From an uncultured Candidatus Saccharibacteria bacterium (GTDB lineage Bacteria > Patescibacteriota > Minisyncoccia > Phycocordibacterales > UBA9973): a stretch of DNA of 64,000 bases. Of this stretch, positions 5,871-24,150 are shown one piece after another. Made by a program: the position numbers and the translations under genes. The first letter of the stretch is position 1. Each line of letters begins with the position of its first letter. The notes beneath the pieces were generated by a model that had not been told where the DNA came from, made no database searches, and saw only the letters and a program-made list of their open reading frames with translations. The stretch covers positions 2,133-66,132 of the forward strand of contig CAYGDG010000004.1 of the NCBI GenBank assembly GCA_964348725.1, given 5' to 3'.

Positions 5871-6251
5871 GTGAAAGATTTTGATAATTGGAATAAATTA
5901 AAAAAAGAGCTCAATGAAAAAGGAAATTTTCCTTACCCTGCACCTCGTGAGATATGGTGGTGTTCTCTTGGACTGAACATTGGAGTAGAAATAGACGGGA
6001 AAAATGAAAATTTTGAAAGACCTGTTTTAGTTCTTCGCGCGTACAATAAAGAAATGCTCAAAGTCGTACCGCTTACCACAAGAGAAAAATCACCGCCTTT
6101 CTATTTTAAAATTCAGAACGAGGCGATTTCTTCTTTTGCCGTTATTTCACAAACGAGAGTAATCAGCTCCCGCCGGATGATACGGAAAATAAGCAAGATT
6201 TCACCAGAGGAATTTCAGCGCCTGAAAGCTGCTATTCAAAAAATCGGCTAG
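5871..6251 (+). CDS. MazF/PemK-family toxin-like protein with N-terminal extension (no adjacent antitoxin seen)
   Basis: REIWWCSLGLNIGVEIDGKNENFERPVLVL aligns with the MazF core GDLIWVDFDPTKGSEQAGHRPAVVLS. LKVVPLTTREKSPPFYF aligns with CLCVPCTTQSKGYPFEV. The C-terminal ISPEEFQRLKAAIQKIG aligns with APEELQLIKAKINVLIG. Confidence 0.6.
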   Translation: MKDFDNWNKLKKELNEKGNFPYPAPREIWWCSLGLNIGVEIDGKNENFERPVLVLRAYNKEMLKVVPLTTREKSPPFYFKIQNEAISSFAVISQTRVISSRRMIRKISKISPEEFQRLKAAIQKIG

Positions 6252-6353
6252 AAACAATCGGAGCCCGCCACTTTCGTGGCGGGCTCCTCGGAGTTCCGCA
6301 AAGGGAACCTAATACTTATATTATAGCAAAGCGCCTTGCTTCAAGTCAACCTC

Positions 6354-6626
6354 CTAATACAAAGTCTTCAACCAAACCCCCACGCCTTTATGCCCCGAGC
6401 AAGTGCCGCGCTTGTGCTGGCTGAAGCTGTATGTGCCGTCCTTGCATTTCGCGCTCGCGCCTTTCGGCGCGACCTTGGCCTTTACCGGAGCGTGCACTTT
6501 CACGCCGCTTGAATTCACATAATAATCGCTCGCCGCTATGGTCGGGACAGGGGAGAACGCCAGGCTGAAAGCCATCGCCAAAAGCAAAATAAAGCCGGGT
6601 ATCAAGTGCCTCTTTTTCGTATTCAT
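6354..6626 (-). CDS. DUF3761-family small secreted protein
   Basis: Signal peptide followed by the hallmark YYVNSSGVKVHAP ... AKCKDGTYSFSQHKRGTCSGHKGVGVWL. Confidence 0.6.
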   Translation of the reverse strand: MNTKKRHLIPGFILLLAMAFSLAFSPVPTIAASDYYVNSSGVKVHAPVKAKVAPKGASAKCKDGTYSFSQHKRGTCSGHKGVGVWLKTLY

Positions 6627-6754
6627 ATGTCCTCACTTTCGCATCTGGGTTCGCCTTTGTCAATATAAAAACTTTATCTTTTCTTTATGTGGGGTGTGTA
6701 TACTGCCGGTGGCGCGAATTGCGCTATTTATTATTTTGCCTAATTACAAGTTAT

Positions 6755-7417
6755 ATGGAAAAAAGTATACACAAAATTACAATCGGTATTCGCTATCGGC
6801 GTTCTTTTAGGATACCTGACATCTCAGGAAAAGTTATAGATTATATCTTGCACGATGATAAATCACCATTTCGTGAAAATTTCTTTCAAGAAGTTGGTGA
6901 AACTTCTGAAAAAGGTAAGATACTTGTAAGTGAAAAGAAAGATTTCTTGTCTATTGATATAGATAGCTTAATTTTAAGTTTAAATACAAATAATTTGGAG
7001 TCAGCCTTAACAAAAATCAAAGACTCATATTTTCCTTATTTTACAGATTCTATCTTTAAAGAATTTGAAATTGAAAATATAAATAGATTAGGTATTATTT
7101 TTGAACACAGGTTAGAAAAACTTGATTCAATAGATAAAATGACTAAAGAGCTTTCCTTAAATGAAATTTCTGCACCTGATAACTTTGAATTAAGATTTTC
7201 AAAAAAATTACCTACAACAGCTGGATTGATTTCAAAAAATATAGTTGACTTTTATAACACCATTTTTACCTATCAGAAGAATTCTAAAGGTATAGATATT
7301 AAGTTAGACTATCAACTATATTTTTCCCCAGAGATTGGTAGTATACAAGATGTTGAATTTAATAAATTTATTGATTCAGCAAAAAGTTATTTATTAGGTA
7401 AATTCTATAAATGGTAA
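6755..7417 (+). CDS. hypothetical cytoplasmic protein, first gene of an AT-rich three-gene operon
   Basis: Internal ATG at 6755 is preferred over the track start at 6689. About 30% GC against about 50% in flanking sequence. No TM segment. No recognizable domain. Confidence 0.45.
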   Translation: MEKSIHKITIGIRYRRSFRIPDISGKVIDYILHDDKSPFRENFFQEVGETSEKGKILVSEKKDFLSIDIDSLILSLNTNNLESALTKIKDSYFPYFTDSIFKEFEIENINRLGIIFEHRLEKLDSIDKMTKELSLNEISAPDNFELRFSKKLPTTAGLISKNIVDFYNTIFTYQKNSKGIDIKLDYQLYFSPEIGSIQDVEFNKFIDSAKSYLLGKFYKW

Positions 7418-7418
7418 A

Positions 7419-7949
7419 ATGGCAAAGAGAAACTACCATCTATCACGATTTCATCATACAGGTAAATCTAAGATAGAGAAAAATGATTATGTTGAATTAA
7501 TTAATGCTCCTCAAGAAAAAATCAATGATACTATTGAAGACAGCAGTGATGTATTTTCAGGCTCAGATATAACCGATTCTGGAAAAGGAACAATCTTAAA
7601 GAGTCGTAAAATTATAAAAGAAGATGTTGTAGAGCAGAGCAAAGCACAAAAATCTAAACCTTATGTATCTTTAGGTACAAAATTAAGTAAAAATATTAGA
7701 AAAATAATCTGGGATGGAATTATTGTTGCGATACTCATCACTGCTGTTGGAGTAGTATGGGGCCAGCAAAAAGATTTAGGGAAGATTTTAGCTAATATTG
7801 ATGCCATAAAAGATGATATTACTAAACTTCAAAATAAATATGACGATAACACAGGGTATATTGATAATGTAAAGATAATTACACAGATACAATCAGATTT
7901 GGCTTTTTTAAAGGAAAGGTTAATCAAAGTAGAGTTAAAAGTAGAATAA
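7419..7949 (+). CDS. hypothetical single-pass membrane protein with C-terminal coiled coil
   Basis: Start lies 1 nt after the upstream stop, so translation is coupled. TM segment IIWDGIIVAILITAVGVVWG. Heptad-like C-terminus. AT-rich. Confidence 0.45.
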   Translation: MAKRNYHLSRFHHTGKSKIEKNDYVELINAPQEKINDTIEDSSDVFSGSDITDSGKGTILKSRKIIKEDVVEQSKAQKSKPYVSLGTKLSKNIRKIIWDGIIVAILITAVGVVWGQQKDLGKILANIDAIKDDITKLQNKYDDNTGYIDNVKIITQIQSDLAFLKERLIKVELKVE

Positions 7950-7986
7950 TATTGTATCAATATATTCAAAATGCTAATATCAATAT

Positions 7987-8658
7987 ATGAGAATTAAAAA
8001 ATTAGTATCAAATATTGTTTTCATTAAAAGACCTGAAACAGAAAATAAATGGTGGCATCGTCTATCCCAGGTACTTGTTTTTGGCTCAGGTATTATTGTA
8101 TTTATAATTTCAATCTTATTTTCCTTAGATTATTTAGGTAATCATAGATATGTTGCTTATCATCCAACAGCATTTAGTCTAGAGCCAAACTATGAACGAG
8201 CCAAGGGAAAAGAATTCCGGTGTGAAGAAACCCTGAATTTTTCAGGGGAAGAGCGTTTCATAATTAAATGTGAAGGCATTGCAATTTCACCCGAAGCTTC
8301 AAAGAGATATCAAATACTCTACAATGTTGCTGATAAAGATTTAGAGAAGCAATTTGGTTTAGATAAATATGATGCTACTCATTGCTCTAATAGTGAAAAA
8401 TTTACAACTGAAGCAATGGATTGTATATGGCAAGCTGTAGAGGATAAGCAGGCAGATGCTGCGTATGATGAATATCTAGAGGCACAAAAAAATATCGCGC
8501 GCATTAAAGTTGTCAAAGATATTCACTATAAATACATACTAAGTGATGTCTGTATGTTTTTATTAGTTCCAATTGTTTCTTTTATTGCTTGGATTTTATT
8601 GTGGAATTCAGTTATTTATAGAGTGATTCTTTATATAATTTACGGAAAGAAAAAATAA
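7987..8658 (+). CDS. hypothetical two-TM membrane protein
   Basis: N-terminal TM (VLVFGSGIIVFIISILFSL) and C-terminal TM (VCMFLLVPIVSFIAWILLW). AT-rich. Followed by a strong terminator. Confidence 0.45.
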   Translation: MRIKKLVSNIVFIKRPETENKWWHRLSQVLVFGSGIIVFIISILFSLDYLGNHRYVAYHPTAFSLEPNYERAKGKEFRCEETLNFSGEERFIIKCEGIAISPEASKRYQILYNVADKDLEKQFGLDKYDATHCSNSEKFTTEAMDCIWQAVEDKQADAAYDEYLEAQKNIARIKVVKDIHYKYILSDVCMFLLVPIVSFIAWILLWNSVIYRVILYIIYGKKK

Positions 8659-8670
8659 TTAATAAAAAAG

Positions 8671-8700
8671 AAAACCCCGCAATATTGCGGGGTTTTCTTT
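8671..8700. terminator. bidirectional intrinsic terminator ending the AT-rich operon
   Basis: AAAACCCCGCAAtaTTGCGGGGTTTT: a perfect GC-rich stem with an A-tract upstream and a T-tract downstream. Confidence 0.55.
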
Positions 8701-8826: not shown

Positions 8827-9051
8827 TTATCCTTTAGGAGGGAAGTCATCGTTCCCATAAGAATTTCTCCAGCCAATCGTGCCATCTAGCTTCTGAACCA
8901 AAAGTTCAGCTTCTTTATTGATTGCGATTTCTCGCGCTCTTTCAATAGCTTCTTCTTTTGTTTCAAAAAATCCAGCAGCTCTTTCTGCTCCTGCACTTTT
9001 GACCTTCCATCCTTCATCACTAGGGCTTACCCATACTTGATTCAAAGACAT
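8827..9051 (-). CDS. DUF2188-family small protein
   Basis: VSPSDEGWKVKSAGAERAAGFFETKEEAIERAREIA ... DGTIGWRNSYGNDDFPP matches the DUF2188 pattern (GW.V...G.....F.T..EA...A..IA ... DGTI....SYGNDP). Confidence 0.55.
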   Translation of the reverse strand: MSLNQVWVSPSDEGWKVKSAGAERAAGFFETKEEAIERAREIAINKEAELLVQKLDGTIGWRNSYGNDDFPPKG

Positions 9052-17171: not shown

Positions 17172-17296
17172 ATTTAGATATTTTTTATTACTTTTTTATC
17201 AAATATTTAAGAAGGTTTTTTATAATCCCTTCAAATCAGTTATGAGGTAGCCGAAAATCACAAAAAGAGTAGGCATACAAATTTAATATTTTAGCT

Positions 17297-19242: not shown

Positions 19243-20337
19243 ATGCTCACGAAGGTGAATTTCAAATCAAAAGAGGAACTGCGGGCGGACTTGGCGAAGG
19301 AGGATTTCTGCCGCACGACGCTTTCTTTCTATAAATATGTACGTATTGCCGACCCGAAGGCGATGCGGGATTTTTTGTTTGATACTTTTTCCGAATTGAA
19401 ATGCCTCGGCAGGATATATGTAGCGAAAGAGGGAATCAATGCGCAGATGAATGTGCCGGAGCATAACTTTGCGGCTTTTGATCGGTTTATTCAGAGTACA
19501 AAAGAATTTGCCGGTGTGCCTTATAAAGTAGCTGTAGAGGAGAAACCTGCCCGCAATGCTTCGCATAGCGATGCAGGCGGGGGTCAGTCCAGCTTTTTGA
19601 AATTGACGATAAAAGTGCGCGAGAAAATAGTAGCGGACGGCATAGACGACCCAAGTTTTAATCCCGCAAATACCGGCGAATATGTGCTGGCGGAAGAAGC
19701 GAATGCGATGATAGACCGCGGCACGACGGTGATAGATATGCGCAACCTCTACGAATCCGCCATCGGGCACTTTGAAAATGCGAAGATAATGAATGTGGAT
19801 ACTTTCCGCGAGCAATTGAAAAAAGTGCACGCGATGTTTAAGGACAAGAAAGACGAAGAAGTGCTTCTGTATTGCACCGGCGGCATCCGCTGTGAGAAAG
19901 CTTCGGCCTGGATGAAGCACAATGGTTTTAAAAATGTAAAGCATATTAAGGGCGGCATTATAGATTACGCGCATCGGGTGAAGGAGCTTGGCTTGCCGAA
20001 TAAATTCCGCGGAAAGAATTTCGTCTTTGACGAGCGGATGGCGGAAAAAGTGGGGGAGGAGACGATAGCGTACTGCCAAGTGTGCGAAAAGGAAAAGTGC
20101 GATGATTATATCCACTGCAAAAATGAATCCTGCCATATGCTTTTCATTTCCTGCAAAAAATGCGAGCAAAACCTCGCCGGCTACTGCGGACGCATCTGCC
20201 AGATATGCGACAAATTCCCGAAAAAGATAAATGATATGCTCATCGGCAAGAGCCGCCAGAAGCACGGCAACCAGTTCAAGAAGAATTACAAGAAGTTCAA
20301 AGATATTAGCCCTATAAAAGTAAATTTAGTAAAATAA
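19243..20337 (+). CDS. trhO: tRNA uridine(34) hydroxylase TrhO (rhodanese-domain, UPF0176/YceA family) with Cys-rich C-terminus
   Basis: Long blocks are near-identical to E. coli YceA: SFYKY..IADPKA, GINAQ, VADGIDDP, YCTGGIRCEKASAWMKHNGF, GKNFVFDERM, followed by a CxxC-rich tail. Confidence 0.85.
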   Translation: MLTKVNFKSKEELRADLAKEDFCRTTLSFYKYVRIADPKAMRDFLFDTFSELKCLGRIYVAKEGINAQMNVPEHNFAAFDRFIQSTKEFAGVPYKVAVEEKPARNASHSDAGGGQSSFLKLTIKVREKIVADGIDDPSFNPANTGEYVLAEEANAMIDRGTTVIDMRNLYESAIGHFENAKIMNVDTFREQLKKVHAMFKDKKDEEVLLYCTGGIRCEKASAWMKHNGFKNVKHIKGGIIDYAHRVKELGLPNKFRGKNFVFDERMAEKVGEETIAYCQVCEKEKCDDYIHCKNESCHMLFISCKKCEQNLAGYCGRICQICDKFPKKINDMLIGKSRQKHGNQFKKNYKKFKDISPIKVNLVK

Positions 20338-20368
20338 AGCTGTTGGATGTGTGACCCTATAAAATTAT

Positions 20369-20968
20369 ATGCAACTTACACACAGTGACAGAGAAAAAAT
20401 CGCTCGTCAATATGATAAATCTTTATTAATTCCTAGTCATAATCTGACACATAGGTTTATTCTTGCTCCTGTTGGTTTGGTTGGTTCTGGTAAAAGCACA
20501 GTTGTTAAGCCGCTTTCAGAAAAATTTTCTCTTGTACGAATTTCCTCTGATGAAATAAGAGAAATTTTAAAAAAATTATCTTGTGACTATACACAGGAAG
20601 ATGTTTTATATATTGACATATTGTTGCTCCGTAAATATTTGAAAAGCGGATACGGAGTTGTTTTTGACAGTGATTGTGAAAACAAGGTATCAATCATAAA
20701 GGAGTTGGAAAAAGAATTTGATGTCCCAGTAATCTGGATAAATATTAATCCACCGGAAGAATTCATACTAAACAAGTTGCAACATATGAGCTATGAAAAA
20801 GGTCATGTTTTCAAAAATGCACAACAGGCTATCGCCACTTACTTTAAAGACAAACCGATTCATAGAAATTTGAGTATGCCATTTATTTCTACGATTGATA
20901 CTTCAAAAGAAAACCTCAACGGTCAGATTTACGAAACGAGCGAAAAGATAAGTAAGAGCTTGATATAA
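20369..20968 (+). CDS. P-loop NTPase, predicted small-molecule/nucleotide kinase (AAA_33 / zeta-toxin-like fold)
   Basis: Walker A LAPVGLVGSGKSTV. Walker B-like VVFDSD. 199 aa. About 33% GC, which is compositionally atypical. Confidence 0.45.
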   Translation: MQLTHSDREKIARQYDKSLLIPSHNLTHRFILAPVGLVGSGKSTVVKPLSEKFSLVRISSDEIREILKKLSCDYTQEDVLYIDILLLRKYLKSGYGVVFDSDCENKVSIIKELEKEFDVPVIWININPPEEFILNKLQHMSYEKGHVFKNAQQAIATYFKDKPIHRNLSMPFISTIDTSKENLNGQIYETSEKISKSLI

Positions 20969-21721
20969 ATGTCTCTTGGGGCATATTTTAGTGCAAAAAT
21001 AGTCTTTTTTTGCTATATTCTAGGGATGAATGAAAGGGGAAAAGAACATCCGCTGAATATACTCATCGCCGAATCGTACGGCGTGTTTTCCGAGCTTGGA
21101 TTTGAGATAGCGATAGAGCGCGAGCTGGAAGACGAACAGCACAACTTTGATATTTTGAATGTGCCGAAAGACCATCCCGCCCGCGATATGCAGGATACTT
21201 TTTATGTGAAAGGAAAAGAGGGCGTATTGCGCACGCACGCGACGAATGCTTCGGCTCGCGCTTTGGAAAAATTAGCGGCGGAGGGCAAGACGACTGCCGC
21301 ATATATTTCCATCGGCAAAGTGTTCAGGAATGAAGCCACGGACGCCACGCACGAAATGCAGTTCTATCAGATAGACGGCGCGATGGTGGGGGAGAATATC
21401 ACGCTGGCGAATTTGAAAGCGGTGCTTCTGCACTTCTACAAAAAAGTGCTCGGCGAAGAAGTGGAAATAGAATTCCGTCCGTCGTTCTTCCCATTTACCG
21501 AGCCATCCGTGGAAGTGTTCGCAAAATTCAAAGGCAAGTGGCTGGAAGTGATGGGCGCGGGAATGCTCCATCCGAATGTGCTGAAGAATTGCGGCCTTGA
21601 CCCGGCGCGCGTACAAGGCTTCGCCTTCGGCGGCGGCTTGGACCGCATAGCGATGGTCCGCTGGGGCATTCCCGATGTGCGGCTTTTTTATCAGGGGGAT
21701 TTGAGATTGAATCAGTTTTAA
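20969..21721 (+). CDS. pheS: phenylalanine--tRNA ligase alpha subunit (catalytic core only)
   Basis: DHPARDMQDTFYV, LRTHATNASARAL, FRNEATDATHEMQFYQIDG, FRPSFFPFTEPSVEV, GAGMLHPNVL. The true start may be the internal ATG at 21029 (MNERGK). Confidence 0.85.
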   Translation: MSLGAYFSAKIVFFCYILGMNERGKEHPLNILIAESYGVFSELGFEIAIERELEDEQHNFDILNVPKDHPARDMQDTFYVKGKEGVLRTHATNASARALEKLAAEGKTTAAYISIGKVFRNEATDATHEMQFYQIDGAMVGENITLANLKAVLLHFYKKVLGEEVEIEFRPSFFPFTEPSVEVFAKFKGKWLEVMGAGMLHPNVLKNCGLDPARVQGFAFGGGLDRIAMVRWGIPDVRLFYQGDLRLNQF

Positions 21722-21722
21722 T

Positions 21723-22325
21723 ATGAAAAATAAAAATTTAAAAATTATAATTTCCGTACTATTTCTTTTGGCGATAGGAGTTGCTATGTTTTTTTTGATT
21801 AACAAAAAAGACAATGCTATTTATGGGGACTCTATATTACCAATAGCAGAGCAAAAAGATTATTTAAAAAAACTCACTAGACTTTGGAATAATTATATAA
21901 AAAACCCAAACGAAGAAACCGCACAAGAATTGCTTGTATTTTTACCAGACACGAATAATCATATATATTCACCAGATGTTCCAGATTATGAATCGCTTAA
22001 GAAAGCGATAAACAATGATTATCCTAGAGTTCTAGAAATTATCTTTGAATTTCAGCGTAATTCAACAGGAGTTGATAAGGAATTTTTGAATATTCAAGCA
22101 GGATATTACTTGGAAGTTAATCCTAAAAACTTCTTAGAGATAGCTTCTAAAACTAAAGATTTTAGGGTAACTGATTATGATTGGACATTAGATTCAGATG
22201 AATTAACTAAAGAACATACCTCAAAAATGATTAATGCTTTAGAAAATGTTAAAGATAATAATTTTATAAATCTACGGGACAAACTTATTAAAGAATTTAA
22301 ATATAGTTTAAGTAGATATAATTAA
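21723..22325 (+). CDS. hypothetical membrane-anchored protein inserted between pheS and pheT
   Basis: N-terminal TM segment (IIISVLFLLAIGVAMFFLI). AT-rich, about 30% GC. No recognizable domain. Confidence 0.4.
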   Translation: MKNKNLKIIISVLFLLAIGVAMFFLINKKDNAIYGDSILPIAEQKDYLKKLTRLWNNYIKNPNEETAQELLVFLPDTNNHIYSPDVPDYESLKKAINNDYPRVLEIIFEFQRNSTGVDKEFLNIQAGYYLEVNPKNFLEIASKTKDFRVTDYDWTLDSDELTKEHTSKMINALENVKDNNFINLRDKLIKEFKYSLSRYN

Positions 22326-22326
22326 T

Positions 22327-24150
22327 ATGAAAATCTCCTACAACTGGCTCAAATGGTATATTCCTGAAATTCCCGAGGCGGACAAGGTCGCGGAGATTTT
22401 TTCGCGGCATCTGACGGAAGTGGAGGGAATGGAGAAAAAGGAGGATGGCGATGTGATTTTTGATTTGAATATTTTGCCGAATCGGGCGCACGATTTGCTT
22501 TCGCATCACGGCGTGGCGAAAGAATTAGCAGGACAGCTCGGCATCAAATACAATGATCCCACGCCGATGTATAAAGTGCCGGAAGCAAAGCCAACGAATT
22601 TGAAAATAGATTTGCAGACGGATAAATGCCGCCGATATATGGGGCGGATTGTGAGGAATGTAAAAGTAGGTGAAAGCCCGGACTGGGTGAAAGGGCACTT
22701 GGCTTCAATAGGGCAGAGGAGTATAAACAATATCGTAGATGCCACGAATATCACAATGTATGACTGCGGTCAGCCGATACACGCTTTTGATTTGGATAAG
22801 CTAGCGAGTGAAAAGATTATCGTGCGTACGGCGAAAGCGGGCGAAAAAATAACTTTGCTTTCCGGTGAGGAAAAGGAATTGAAAGAAGGGGATATGGTAA
22901 TTGCCGATGAACAGAATGCGCTCGCTATTGCCGGTGTGAAAGGCGGAAAAGTAGCGGAAGTGGATGCGAACACAAAAAATATTTTGATAGAAGTGGCGAA
23001 TTTTGACCCGGCCAGCGTGCGGAAGACTTCGCGACGATTGGGAATTTTGACCGATTCTTCCAAGCGATTTGAAAATGACCTTTCGCCGGAATTAGGAGAT
23101 CTCGCAATGAAAGAAGTATCCGGGCTGATGGTGGAATACGGATTTACGGATTTTGAAGAAATTATAGACCAGTATCCTGTGAAGCAAAAGGAACACAAAA
23201 TTTCTTTCACTACGGAATTAGTGAATAAAAAATTGGGAAGCAGCATCACCGATTCGGAAATAGAAACTATATTAAAAAATTATTCTTACGATTTTTCCCA
23301 TATGTTGGACATCTGGGAAATAAAGGTGCCTGCACTTCGCCTTGATTTAGTTTTCCCCGAAGATATGGTGGAAGAAATCGGCAGGATATACGGCTATGAC
23401 AAAGTAGTGCCGGTGATGCCAAAGATTGATTTCACGCCGAAAGAAAATGAAACTTTTGCCAAAATTTCCGCCGCGCGGGAGAAACTGCTTTCGGAAGGGT
23501 ATAGCGAAGTGATGACCTATGCCTTCCGCGCGAAAGGGGAAGTGGAAGTGCTTGCTTCTGCATCGGATAAAAAATTTCTGCGTACGAATCTCTCGGACGG
23601 ATTAAAAGAGAGCATAAAAATGAATCAGGCGAATTTACCGCTCCTCGGGATGAAAGAGGTGAAAGTTTTTGAAATTGGGAATGTGTTTGTGAATGGAAAA
23701 GAGGAGACGTATGTTGCGTACGGAAATAAAAAAGAAGTGAAAGAAATAAAATTGGAAGAATTCGCCTCGGCTGATGCTTTTGCTCAGGTCCTCGGGTCGG
23801 CCGCGCAATCTTCTCCTTCGGAGCGGCCTCTACCAGACCATTCGCAAAAGTATACAGCCTCGGCTTTTACGCTGTGGTCTGCGTATCCTTTTATCGCGCG
23901 TGATATTGCACTCTGGGCAAGTGAAAATACTACACCGGAGGAAATTATGGAAATCATAAAGGGGGTTATGGGCGAGCTCGTCGTGCGTGGTCCCGAGCTT
24001 TTTGATCAGTTCAAAAAGGACGCCAAAATATCCTATGCTTTCAGGGTGGTTTTCCAATCACCGGAACGGACTTTGACGGATGAAGAAGTGAGTGTTTATA
24101 TGGGTAAAATCACCTCAGCACTCACGGAAAAAGGCTTTGAGATTAGGTAA
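22327..24150 (+). CDS. pheT: phenylalanine--tRNA ligase beta subunit (short, 607 aa)
   Basis: N-terminal MKISYNWLKWYIPE. B3/4 and B5 regions. C-terminal FDQFKKDAKISYAFRVVFQSPERTLTDEEV is an FDX-ACB-like end. Confidence 0.8.
   Translation: MKISYNWLKWYIPEIPEADKVAEIFSRHLTEVEGMEKKEDGDVIFDLNILPNRAHDLLSHHGVAKELAGQLGIKYNDPTPMYKVPEAKPTNLKIDLQTDKCRRYMGRIVRNVKVGESPDWVKGHLASIGQRSINNIVDATNITMYDCGQPIHAFDLDKLASEKIIVRTAKAGEKITLLSGEEKELKEGDMVIADEQNALAIAGVKGGKVAEVDANTKNILIEVANFDPASVRKTSRRLGILTDSSKRFENDLSPELGDLAMKEVSGLMVEYGFTDFEEIIDQYPVKQKEHKISFTTELVNKKLGSSITDSEIETILKNYSYDFSHMLDIWEIKVPALRLDLVFPEDMVEEIGRIYGYDKVVPVMPKIDFTPKENETFAKISAAREKLLSEGYSEVMTYAFRAKGEVEVLASASDKKFLRTNLSDGLKESIKMNQANLPLLGMKEVKVFEIGNVFVNGKEETYVAYGNKKEVKEIKLEEFASADAFAQVLGSAAQSSPSERPLPDHSQKYTASAFTLWSAYPFIARDIALWASENTTPEEIMEIIKGVMGELVVRGPELFDQFKKDAKISYAFRVVFQSPERTLTDEEVSVYMGKITSALTEKGFEIR

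Follow-up and report, generated by a model that had tools for sequence, protein, structure and literature searches.

Among the described anti-phage systems, two that join a membrane protein to a cytosolic one are RexAB of phage lambda, whose RexB is a channel protein with four transmembrane (TM) segments, and Kiwa, which combines the multi-pass membrane sensor KwaA with the cytosolic DNA-binding effector KwaB. The present analysis concerns a pair of adjacent genes of comparable layout, genes 1 and 2, located in a 64-kb stretch of DNA (the window: 64,000 nucleotides of contig CAYGDG010000004.1, assigned to an uncultured Candidatus Saccharibacteria bacterium). The pair is, with high confidence, a mobile and co-inherited two-gene unit. 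More tentatively, it may constitute a so far undescribed two-component system against phages that is widely mobile, composed of a sensor resembling the TATA-binding protein (TBP) and a coiled-coil membrane partner, which would place it among the few native defences of the Patescibacteria (Candidate Phyla Radiation, CPR) beyond restriction-modification (R-M).

TBP-like domains have precedents in defence proteins. The anti-phage HEPN toxin RnlA uses tandem TBP-like domains to bind nucleic acid, and its TBP1 domain is required for binding of the substrate (PMC8266594), and TBP-like domains are fused in about 1.5% of the prokaryotic Schlafen defence nucleases (PMC13056530). The Patescibacteria have tiny genomes in which few defence systems have been identified (PMC12366544). 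LdgA and "Dallas" (DdgA) are experimentally validated anti-phage genes of Patescibacterial origin and are reported almost exclusively from this group; LdgA is a single gene, whereas Dallas behaves like abortive infection (Abi) and appears to contribute one named open reading frame (ORF), DdgA, of the seven ORFs counted (PMC12366544). The literature searched on TIGR04255, on TBP-like proteins in defence and on CPR integrative elements yielded no description of the pair.

The conserved gene pair and its products

Genes 1 and 2 open a cassette with the following features.

6755..7417, forward strand: gene 1, an ORF of 220 amino acids (aa), cytoplasmic, first gene of the conserved pair
7419..7949, forward strand: gene 2, an ORF of 176 aa, single-pass membrane protein, second gene of the pair
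7987..8658, forward strand: gene 3, an ORF of 223 aa, two-TM membrane protein of an independent orphan family
8667..8700, no strand assigned: bidirectional intrinsic terminator, a perfect 17+17-nt palindrome with a 0-nt gap
6708..6728, forward strand: short GC-rich hairpin with a T-rich run after it, a terminator-like match

Conservation in other genomes delimits the unit. The pairing was followed in 19 loci (four metagenomic contexts and 15 genome loci), in a contig from IMG/VR (L029) and in the locus L038. A gene-2-type gene stands directly after gene 1 in all 21 of these other loci, in 20 of them by inspection and in L038 by inference from a 157-aa gene that overlaps the end of gene 1 and was assigned from its size and overlap only. 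In each of the 19 loci a protein of 150-175 aa with the architecture and motifs of gene 2 comes after the gene 1 homologue; the spacing ranges from -44 to +41 nt, most often as an overlap of 11-44 nt, and L029 is arranged in this way as well. Between loci, the identity of one protein rises and falls with that of the other (Mantel r = 0.92, permutation p = 2e-4). The two genes are translationally coupled and co-diverging and, because their pairwise identities are tightly correlated, are inherited, and probably function, as a unit. No recurrent third gene follows gene 2, and the ORFs found downstream elsewhere are unrelated to each other.

The composition and layout of the cassette agree with a reading of the same DNA made from the letters alone (the sequence-only reading). 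That reading had described a fall in GC content over 6755..8658, three tightly packed genes with the gene 2 ATG placed 1 nt past the preceding stop, one and two TM segments in the second and third products and a strong bidirectional terminator at the end, and had suggested horizontal acquisition; all of these points held. The GC content of 6755..8658 is 29.0%, the lowest among all 1904-nt windows of the 64 kb (mean 47.1%, standard deviation (SD) 4.6) and about 3.9 SD below their mean. Windows of 300 nt contain 24-34% GC from ~6700 to ~8700 and ~50% on either side. The GC content at third codon positions (GC3) is 0.19 in gene 1, 0.21 in gene 2 and 0.22 in gene 3, compared with 0.50-0.72 in the neighbours of typical composition (HisKA, DUF3761, PNPOx, TspO and TruB). 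By its composition, the cassette is foreign to the Patescibacteria genome that carries it.

The terminator at 8667..8700 (AAAGAAAACCCCGCAAT/ATTGCGGGGTTTTCTTT) has arms of 17 nt that are 100% complementary, a GC-rich core, an A-run on one side and a T-run on the other. It is predicted to end both the transcription unit of genes 1, 2 and 3 and the convergent DUF2188 gene. The hairpin at 6708..6728 lies exactly at the left transition from GC-rich to AT-rich sequence, 27 nt 5' of the gene 1 ATG, and could be a relic terminator or an element of the 5' leader.

The ATG of gene 1 agrees with the N-termini of its homologues, and the protein has no TM segment. The homologues form 28 clusters at 90% identity among 5.8 billion proteins, and profile search enlarges the family to 481 clusters at 50% identity, which consist almost entirely of single-domain proteins of 220-250 aa. 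The AlphaFold2 (AF2) model (pLDDT 88.8, pTM 0.86) is made of two tandem TBP-like units with the topology S1-H1-S2..S5-H2. DSSP assigns E5-14, H20-33, E44-49, E55-59, E64-67, E71-77 and H81-103 to the first repeat, and E109-120, H124-133, E144-152, E164-176, E179-194 and H202-217 to the second. When the halves were aligned to each other with hhalign, the S1-H1 segments fell in register (xIGIRF / RIGIIF), with weak values (E 0.033, probability 1.5%).

A structure search, which the sequence-only reading had proposed for the three proteins, led from gene 1 to TBP and gave no match for gene 3 (best E 1.3, Foldseek against PDB). The top 25 PDB matches of gene 1 are all TBP (best E 8e-4, probability up to 0.98); they are its sole matches near E 1e-3 with probability 0.9-0.98 and are aligned over the full length. 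The TM-score of the gene 1 model on TBP is 0.28-0.37 and the root-mean-square deviation ~11-12 Å, below the TM-score of ~0.5 expected for a superposition of saddles, which points to modelled halves that are oriented differently from those of the TBP saddle. In a library of viral structures the best match is an unnamed protein (TM-score 0.51-0.54) and the other top matches are mostly unnamed or uncharacterised; further down the list stand a putative TBP and TBP-related subunits of the early transcription factors of giant viruses. Across 83 diverse members of the family, D185 and Q187 are invariant, and G11, G25, D29, F39, R111, G113, N168, I170 and P192 are nearly so.

Sequence databases place none of the three proteins in a family, as the sequence-only reading had anticipated when it could assign no motif: none of them has one in Pfam, NCBIfam, PADLOC or PHROGs. 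Gene 1 has no Pfam match in the TBP-like clan (CL0407), and its 83 relatives have none that is consistent; against Pfam and NCBIfam these relatives return scattered singletons and two weak matches to TIGR04255. The profiles of genes 1, 2 and 3 found nothing significant in PDB, where matches to beta-trefoil designs, ClyA, RGS4 and flagellin were set aside as artefacts of repeats or composition, or as sub-threshold. A tblastn search with gene 1 of 50,697 phage genomes and 72,556 plasmids gave no match, and IMG/VR gave only two distant ones.

The ATG of gene 2 follows the stop codon of gene 1, TAA, at a distance of exactly 1 nt. The gene 2 product begins with a hydrophilic region of ~95 aa, followed by a single TM segment at about aa 96-114, a Q-G-I-Q turn and two heptad segments that make up an external coiled coil of ~60 aa. 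The family alignment reveals an N-terminal motif, R-x-x-H-x-G-K...E-K-E-x-Y-x-x-F-L...K-T-E...S-S-F-x-E, a basic juxtamembrane stretch and a conserved C-terminal end, ..S-K-D-L-E-F/Y-I-K-K-K. The mean net charge of the TM flanks over 19 homologues is +2.05 on the N-terminal side and -0.2 on the C-terminal side; because of these charges the N-terminus is predicted to be cytoplasmic and the C-terminus external. In the same homologues the a/d positions of the heptads are hydrophobic in 72-77% of cases, versus 9-23% at the other positions.

Known families were also considered for the membrane proteins and rejected. The match of gene 2 to the FtsL/FtsB/DivIC group (TIGR02209) reaches 12.9 bits (E 0.079) against a cutoff of 42.45, and one locus in 20 lies near a dcw cluster. 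As phage i-spanin or holin, genes 2 and 3 gave non-significant PHROG values at best (E 0.038 for an Rz-like family, 0.2 for a holin), and no endolysin or lysis cassette stands beside the pair in the window.

Genomic company of the pair

The neighbours of the pair were counted, as raw counts, in 20 loci with usable context, the window included. An R-M operon is co-oriented with the pair and directly adjacent to it in six loci, toxin, Abi or nuclease genes are neighbours in five, and recombinase, Rep, transposase or phage genes in nine. The pair therefore recurs beside known defence genes in unrelated genomes, the pattern of guilt by association in the sense of Doron et al. 2018. The individual contexts are as follows.

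L020 and L021: R-M beside the pair, NgoPII with a C5 DNA methyltransferase (M.C5)
L017: R-M beside the pair, M.C5 with HinP1I
L025: R-M beside the pair, two N4/N6 methyltransferases
L016 and L038: R-M beside the pair, a Mod-like methyltransferase with ResIII
L001: a divergent HEPN_AbiV gene
L010: an NYN nuclease and a Gp49/HTH pair
L013: a Zeta toxin
L028, 7298..8456: a Trypco2-domain gene and a DUF2726 gene directly downstream of the pair
Window: MazF and PDC-S16 (DUF2188) as neighbours
L026: a tyrosine integrase and RadC
L027: a transposase
L029: a phage-like contig
L003: beside a dcw cluster

The DUF2726 gene of L028 has a weak match to the REase_MTES_1575 endonuclease family and is followed by Rep and a serine recombinase, and the locus is a compact island of conflict genes on an integrative element.

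A Pfam tally of 113 neighbouring ORFs from 13 genome loci gives the same picture in terms of families. The commonest is the large serine recombinase (four ORFs); DNA methyltransferases are represented by three C5, three N4/N6 and two D12 enzymes, NgoPII endonuclease, tyrosine integrase and Rep ORF2/G2P by two ORFs each, and HinP1I endonuclease and Mutator transposase by one each. Six loci have a large serine recombinase at most ~5 kb from the pair, and three have Rep ORF2/G2P. Positions 1..6710 of L020 and 1324..7273 of L021 share a block of recombinase, NgoPII, M.C5 and the pair with 78-80% nucleotide identity. Rep was detected in L020 only, and the two metagenome-assembled genomes (MAGs) are labelled Bdellovibrionales and Moraniibacteriota; the block reflects either a recently shared integrative element or mis-binning.

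In 19 of 19 loci the pair has a lower GC content than the DNA on either side, the difference being 3 to 19.5 points. The family, at 25-46% identity, occurs in MAGs labelled Saccharibacteria, several other Patescibacteria, Gammaproteobacteria, Bacilli, Syntrophaceae, Bdellovibrionales and Oscillospiraceae; L023 carries the label Gammaproteobacteria, and L027 and L029 that of Oscillospiraceae.

The window itself carries further genes around the cassette.

5871..6251, forward strand: toxin gene of the PemK/MazF family (Pfam E 2.8e-14), with a GTG start
6354..6626, reverse strand: DUF3761 gene (Pfam E 8.6e-27)
8827..9051, reverse strand: DUF2188 gene (Pfam E 4.4e-20), convergent with the cassette

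These are the MazF-like, DUF3761 and DUF2188 neighbours that the sequence-only reading had named, now recognised by Pfam. The MazF gene is of atypical composition (GC3 0.35), has its own strong terminator at 6260..6287 and, among ORFs of at least 40 aa, is abutted by no antitoxin ORF. The DUF2188 protein matches PDC-S16, a phage-defence-candidate model of PADLOC (E 6.9e-28), as well as PHROG 3220; its gene is AT-rich (GC3 0.28) and looks like another independently acquired gene of the island. By comparison of GC3, the region of ~5.8-9.4 kb is a mosaic island, broken up by the GC-rich DUF3761 gene.

The closest homologues of the TruB protein are 71-72% identical, the named ones being from Patescibacteria (Paceibacterota, Nomurabacteria, Parcubacteria). 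Of the relatives with long contigs, the two nearest keep the synteny MsrB-TruB-TerC-UvrD, with proteins 61-85% identical, and lack MazF, DUF3761, genes 1-3, DUF2188, PNPOx and TspO altogether. The comparison with relatives that had been suggested thus finds the cassette absent, which fits a variable region, in relatives that are too distant for the acquisition to be dated. A metagenome scan with the PNPOx neighbour yielded one non-syntenic genome.

The sequence-only reading had offered a defence module or the remnant of a mobile element as candidates for the cassette. The first part gains from the defence and mobile contexts of the homologues elsewhere, whereas the window offers no boundary of an element: direct repeats or att-like sites were sought at the two GC transitions, about 6690 and 8700, and none was convincing, the sole candidate being an AT-rich 19-mer with 79-84% identity, and no recombinase or Rep gene was found anywhere in the 64 kb. 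The window has neither mobility gene nor repeat boundary, and the pair is here stranded cargo and not a recognisable element remnant.

Three further observations were made in the window. A public gene call of a 90-aa ORF at 6538..6810 on the forward strand (L008 9549..9821) overlaps the start of gene 1 and runs antisense to DUF3761; it has no homologue support and is probably spurious. A second, milder stretch of low GC content at ~20100..23700 (1.9-kb windows with 38-40% GC against the mean of 47%) may be another acquired segment. At 17241..17275, on the forward strand, there is a match to the Rfam cis-regulatory RNA motif DUF805b (41.4 bits, gathering score 35.6).

Proposed function and alternatives

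The pairing of the two genes, their coupling and co-divergence, the foreign composition, the patchy spread, the carriage on integrative elements and the adjacency to R-M, toxin and Abi genes together are the classic signature of defence-island cargo. A defence system is therefore ranked first, and all rival explanations rank below it. Some kind of defence or conflict role is slightly favoured for the pair; the full proposal, a mobile sensor and membrane-effector module directed against phages or other invaders, is a possibility that stops short of being probable.

The pair rides on small integrative elements with serine recombinase and Rep, on prophage-like DNA and in R-M islands, and in the window genome it has been left in a small AT-rich island with MazF, DUF2188 (PDC-S16) and the unrelated gene 3. 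A defence function, physical contact between the two products, their roles as sensor and actor and a membrane-damaging mechanism are what we infer, in the following form. The gene 1 product would be a cytosolic binder with tandem TBP-like domains that recognises a nucleic-acid or protein cue of infection and is docked at the membrane on the conserved cytoplasmic N-terminal tail of gene 2. Once activated, gene 2 would oligomerise through its coiled coils and perturb the membrane, and the outcome would be a Rex-like abortive infection or exclusion. The frequent co-orientation with R-M operons suggests that the pair could serve as a second line behind restriction.

Several observations weigh against this explanation. 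Five of the 20 loci have no defence or mobility neighbour (L003, L019, L022, L023, L024), and some MAG labels may reflect mis-binning, in which case the phylogenetic breadth is overstated. The poor global superposition of gene 1 on TBP means that the function of a DNA saddle is not to be assumed; the family is acidic (median pI 5.8), unlike the DNA-binding TBP, and its conserved residues contain no recognisable catalytic or nucleotide-binding motif. The search for known defence systems that the sequence-only reading had proposed also found none: neither gene 1 nor gene 2, and likewise not gene 3, matches any of the 5027 models of PADLOC (PADLOC-DB v2.0.0; 0 families at E up to 1), and the neighbouring DUF2188 gene, with PDC-S16, is the only one that does. 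Finally, the single TM helix of gene 2 makes a minimal effector, and this helix is conserved less well in sequence than are the cytoplasmic motif and the external C-terminus, a pattern with which a role of gene 2 as sensor or anchor at the envelope would also agree.

This last pattern leads to a serious rival, in itself unlikely, in which the roles are reversed as in Kiwa. Gene 2 would be the envelope sensor, its coiled coil or helix detecting phage attachment or penetration, and gene 1 the released effector, binding incoming nucleic acid through its TBP-like domains and blocking replication or transcription without killing the cell. Such an arrangement agrees with the better conservation of the external (..SKDLEFIKKK) and cytoplasmic motifs than of the TM helix, with the presence of one TM helix only and no obvious pore-lining residues, and with the TBP-like domains of RnlA and RNase H3, which are nucleic-acid-binding modules (PMC8266594). 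It is harder to reconcile with an acidic gene 1 family that has no nuclease or other effector domain and with the lack of any Pfam match to DUF4868/KwaB or KwaA; moreover, it presupposes a defence role, which is itself unproven.

Also serious as a rival, and doubtful to a like degree, is an addiction module of the toxin-antitoxin (TA) kind that stabilises a mobile element or R-M genes, with gene 2 as membrane toxin, gene 1 as antidote and no dedicated anti-phage role. The antitoxin-first order and overlapping stop and start codons would be in character, as would the position of the pair on recombinase/Rep elements and beside the TA genes Gp49/HTH, Zeta and MazF, and the gene 2 profile has weak, sub-threshold matches of the holin, spanin and ClyA type. 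Gene 1, on the other hand, with 220-235 aa in a conserved two-domain fold, is large for an antitoxin and has no helix-turn-helix (HTH) or ribbon-helix-helix (RHH) autoregulator domain, and a simple membrane toxin would not be expected to have the long, conserved coiled coil that gene 2 carries on the outside. Since TA and abortive-infection functions overlap, this explanation does not separate cleanly from the proposed defence module.

A role in housekeeping or element maintenance is very improbable. The pair would then be, for example, an FtsL/DivIC-like accessory of the envelope or of division with a cytosolic partner, or a tether between element DNA and membrane for segregation or transfer. 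The architecture of gene 2, in which a cytoplasmic N-terminus and one TM helix precede an external coiled coil of leucine-zipper-like kind, resembles FtsL/FtsB/DivIC, with the weak TIGR02209 match (E 0.079), L003 adjoins the dcw cluster, and TBP-like domains are able to bind DNA. The 12.9 bits of that match fall far under the 42.45-bit cutoff, however, and the pair is patchily distributed, foreign in composition in 19 of 19 loci and missing from the nearest relatives; its links are with R-M of varied types and with toxins, not with division genes.

Scarcely tenable is a true three-gene membrane operon with gene 3 as functional partner of genes 1 and 2, which the 37-nt spacing without terminator, the same extreme AT content (GC3 0.22) and the single strong terminator would suggest, but which the comparative data have already largely refuted, as no other pair locus has a gene 3 relative, the gene 3 loci checked lack genes 1 and 2, and the genes that come after gene 2 in other loci are related neither to gene 3 nor to one another.

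The sequence-only reading had taken all three genes as the unit; the conserved unit is genes 1 and 2, and in other genomes gene 3 never accompanies them. By tblastn, gene 3 relatives occur together with the pair in the window's own contig only, and the gene tables of two further gene 3 loci list no neighbours that match. Gene 3 is thus an independent orphan membrane gene outside the conserved module, although here, 37 nt past gene 2 and with a single terminator for the three genes, it is probably co-transcribed with the pair. Its TM helices (~22-52 and ~181-219) enclose an alpha/beta domain of ~130 aa that is predicted to be extracytoplasmic; Cys79 and Cys95 are invariant in the alignment of homologues, which form 16 clusters only, and the AF2 model has a pLDDT of 83.9.

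The contexts of the gene 3 homologues vary, one of them standing beside an HTH gene, a serine recombinase and methyltransferases, and gene 3 may be part of a different small mobile module. In L031 (4777..5690) a 73-aa HTH_3 gene lies directly upstream of the homologue; in L006 (5756..6705) an 82-aa ORF overlaps the homologue and a DUF7689 gene accompanies it, close to a terminase-like gene; and in L004 (6001..7396) an overlapping gene of 244/195 aa (L004/L032) follows downstream.

Comparison with known systems

Genes 1 and 2 are a credible candidate for a defence-type module built from two unannotated protein families, at a time when candidates of this kind are numerous. The case rests on the at least 481 clusters at 50% identity, on the recurrence beside diverse R-M operons and on the carriage with serine recombinases and Rep in several labelled phyla. 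If the role is confirmed, an unannotated pair would become a new entry in the catalogue of bacterial immunity, with unusual parts, namely a tandem TBP-like protein that lacks a nuclease and a coiled-coil protein that crosses the membrane once. The analysis defines the two-gene unit and its motifs, and the homologues from MAGs labelled Gammaproteobacteria or Firmicutes may be tractable.

TIGR04255, which NCBIfam describes as "sporadically distributed", comprises proteins of similar size to gene 1, and both families are patchy and uncharacterised. Weak matches to it were found for two of the 83 gene 1 relatives (best E 1.2e-3), whereas the other 81 and gene 1 of the window, at E up to 1, have none; at most it is a distant superfamily link, useful as a lead only, and none of the papers searched mentions TIGR04255.

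TBP itself shares with the gene 1 model the repeated topology S1-H1-S2-S3-S4-S5-H2 in two tandem copies. Gene 1 differs in being acidic and bacterial, in its identity of 7-10%, in the absence of a Pfam TBP match and in the TM-score of 0.28-0.37. RnlA/LsoA likewise carry two consecutive TBP-like domains in a protein of defence context. In contrast to these and to the Schlafen nucleases, gene 1 is a stand-alone protein without a HEPN, Schlafen or other nuclease domain; RnlA is absent from its top 50 Foldseek matches in PDB, and no sequence similarity between them was detected.

LdgA and DdgA resemble the pair in their Patescibacterial origin, the lack of recognisable homology and their defence or conflict contexts. 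The gene 1 family differs from them in occurring also in MAGs labelled as other phyla, a comparison made by description only, in which overlap is possible.

Kiwa likewise consists of two genes, for one membrane and one cytosolic protein, with a logic of envelope sensing and action on DNA. It differs in that neither Pfam nor PADLOC links the present pair to KwaA or KwaB, and in that the membrane protein of the pair is single-pass. RexAB and other two-gene Abi systems with a membrane effector differ in that the pair matches no PADLOC model and that gene 2 has one TM segment and an external coiled coil. Like the pair, they are two adjacent genes on mobile DNA; RexAB, too, combines a cytosolic protein without enzymatic motif with a small membrane protein, and for both a logic that leads from sensor to membrane has been proposed.

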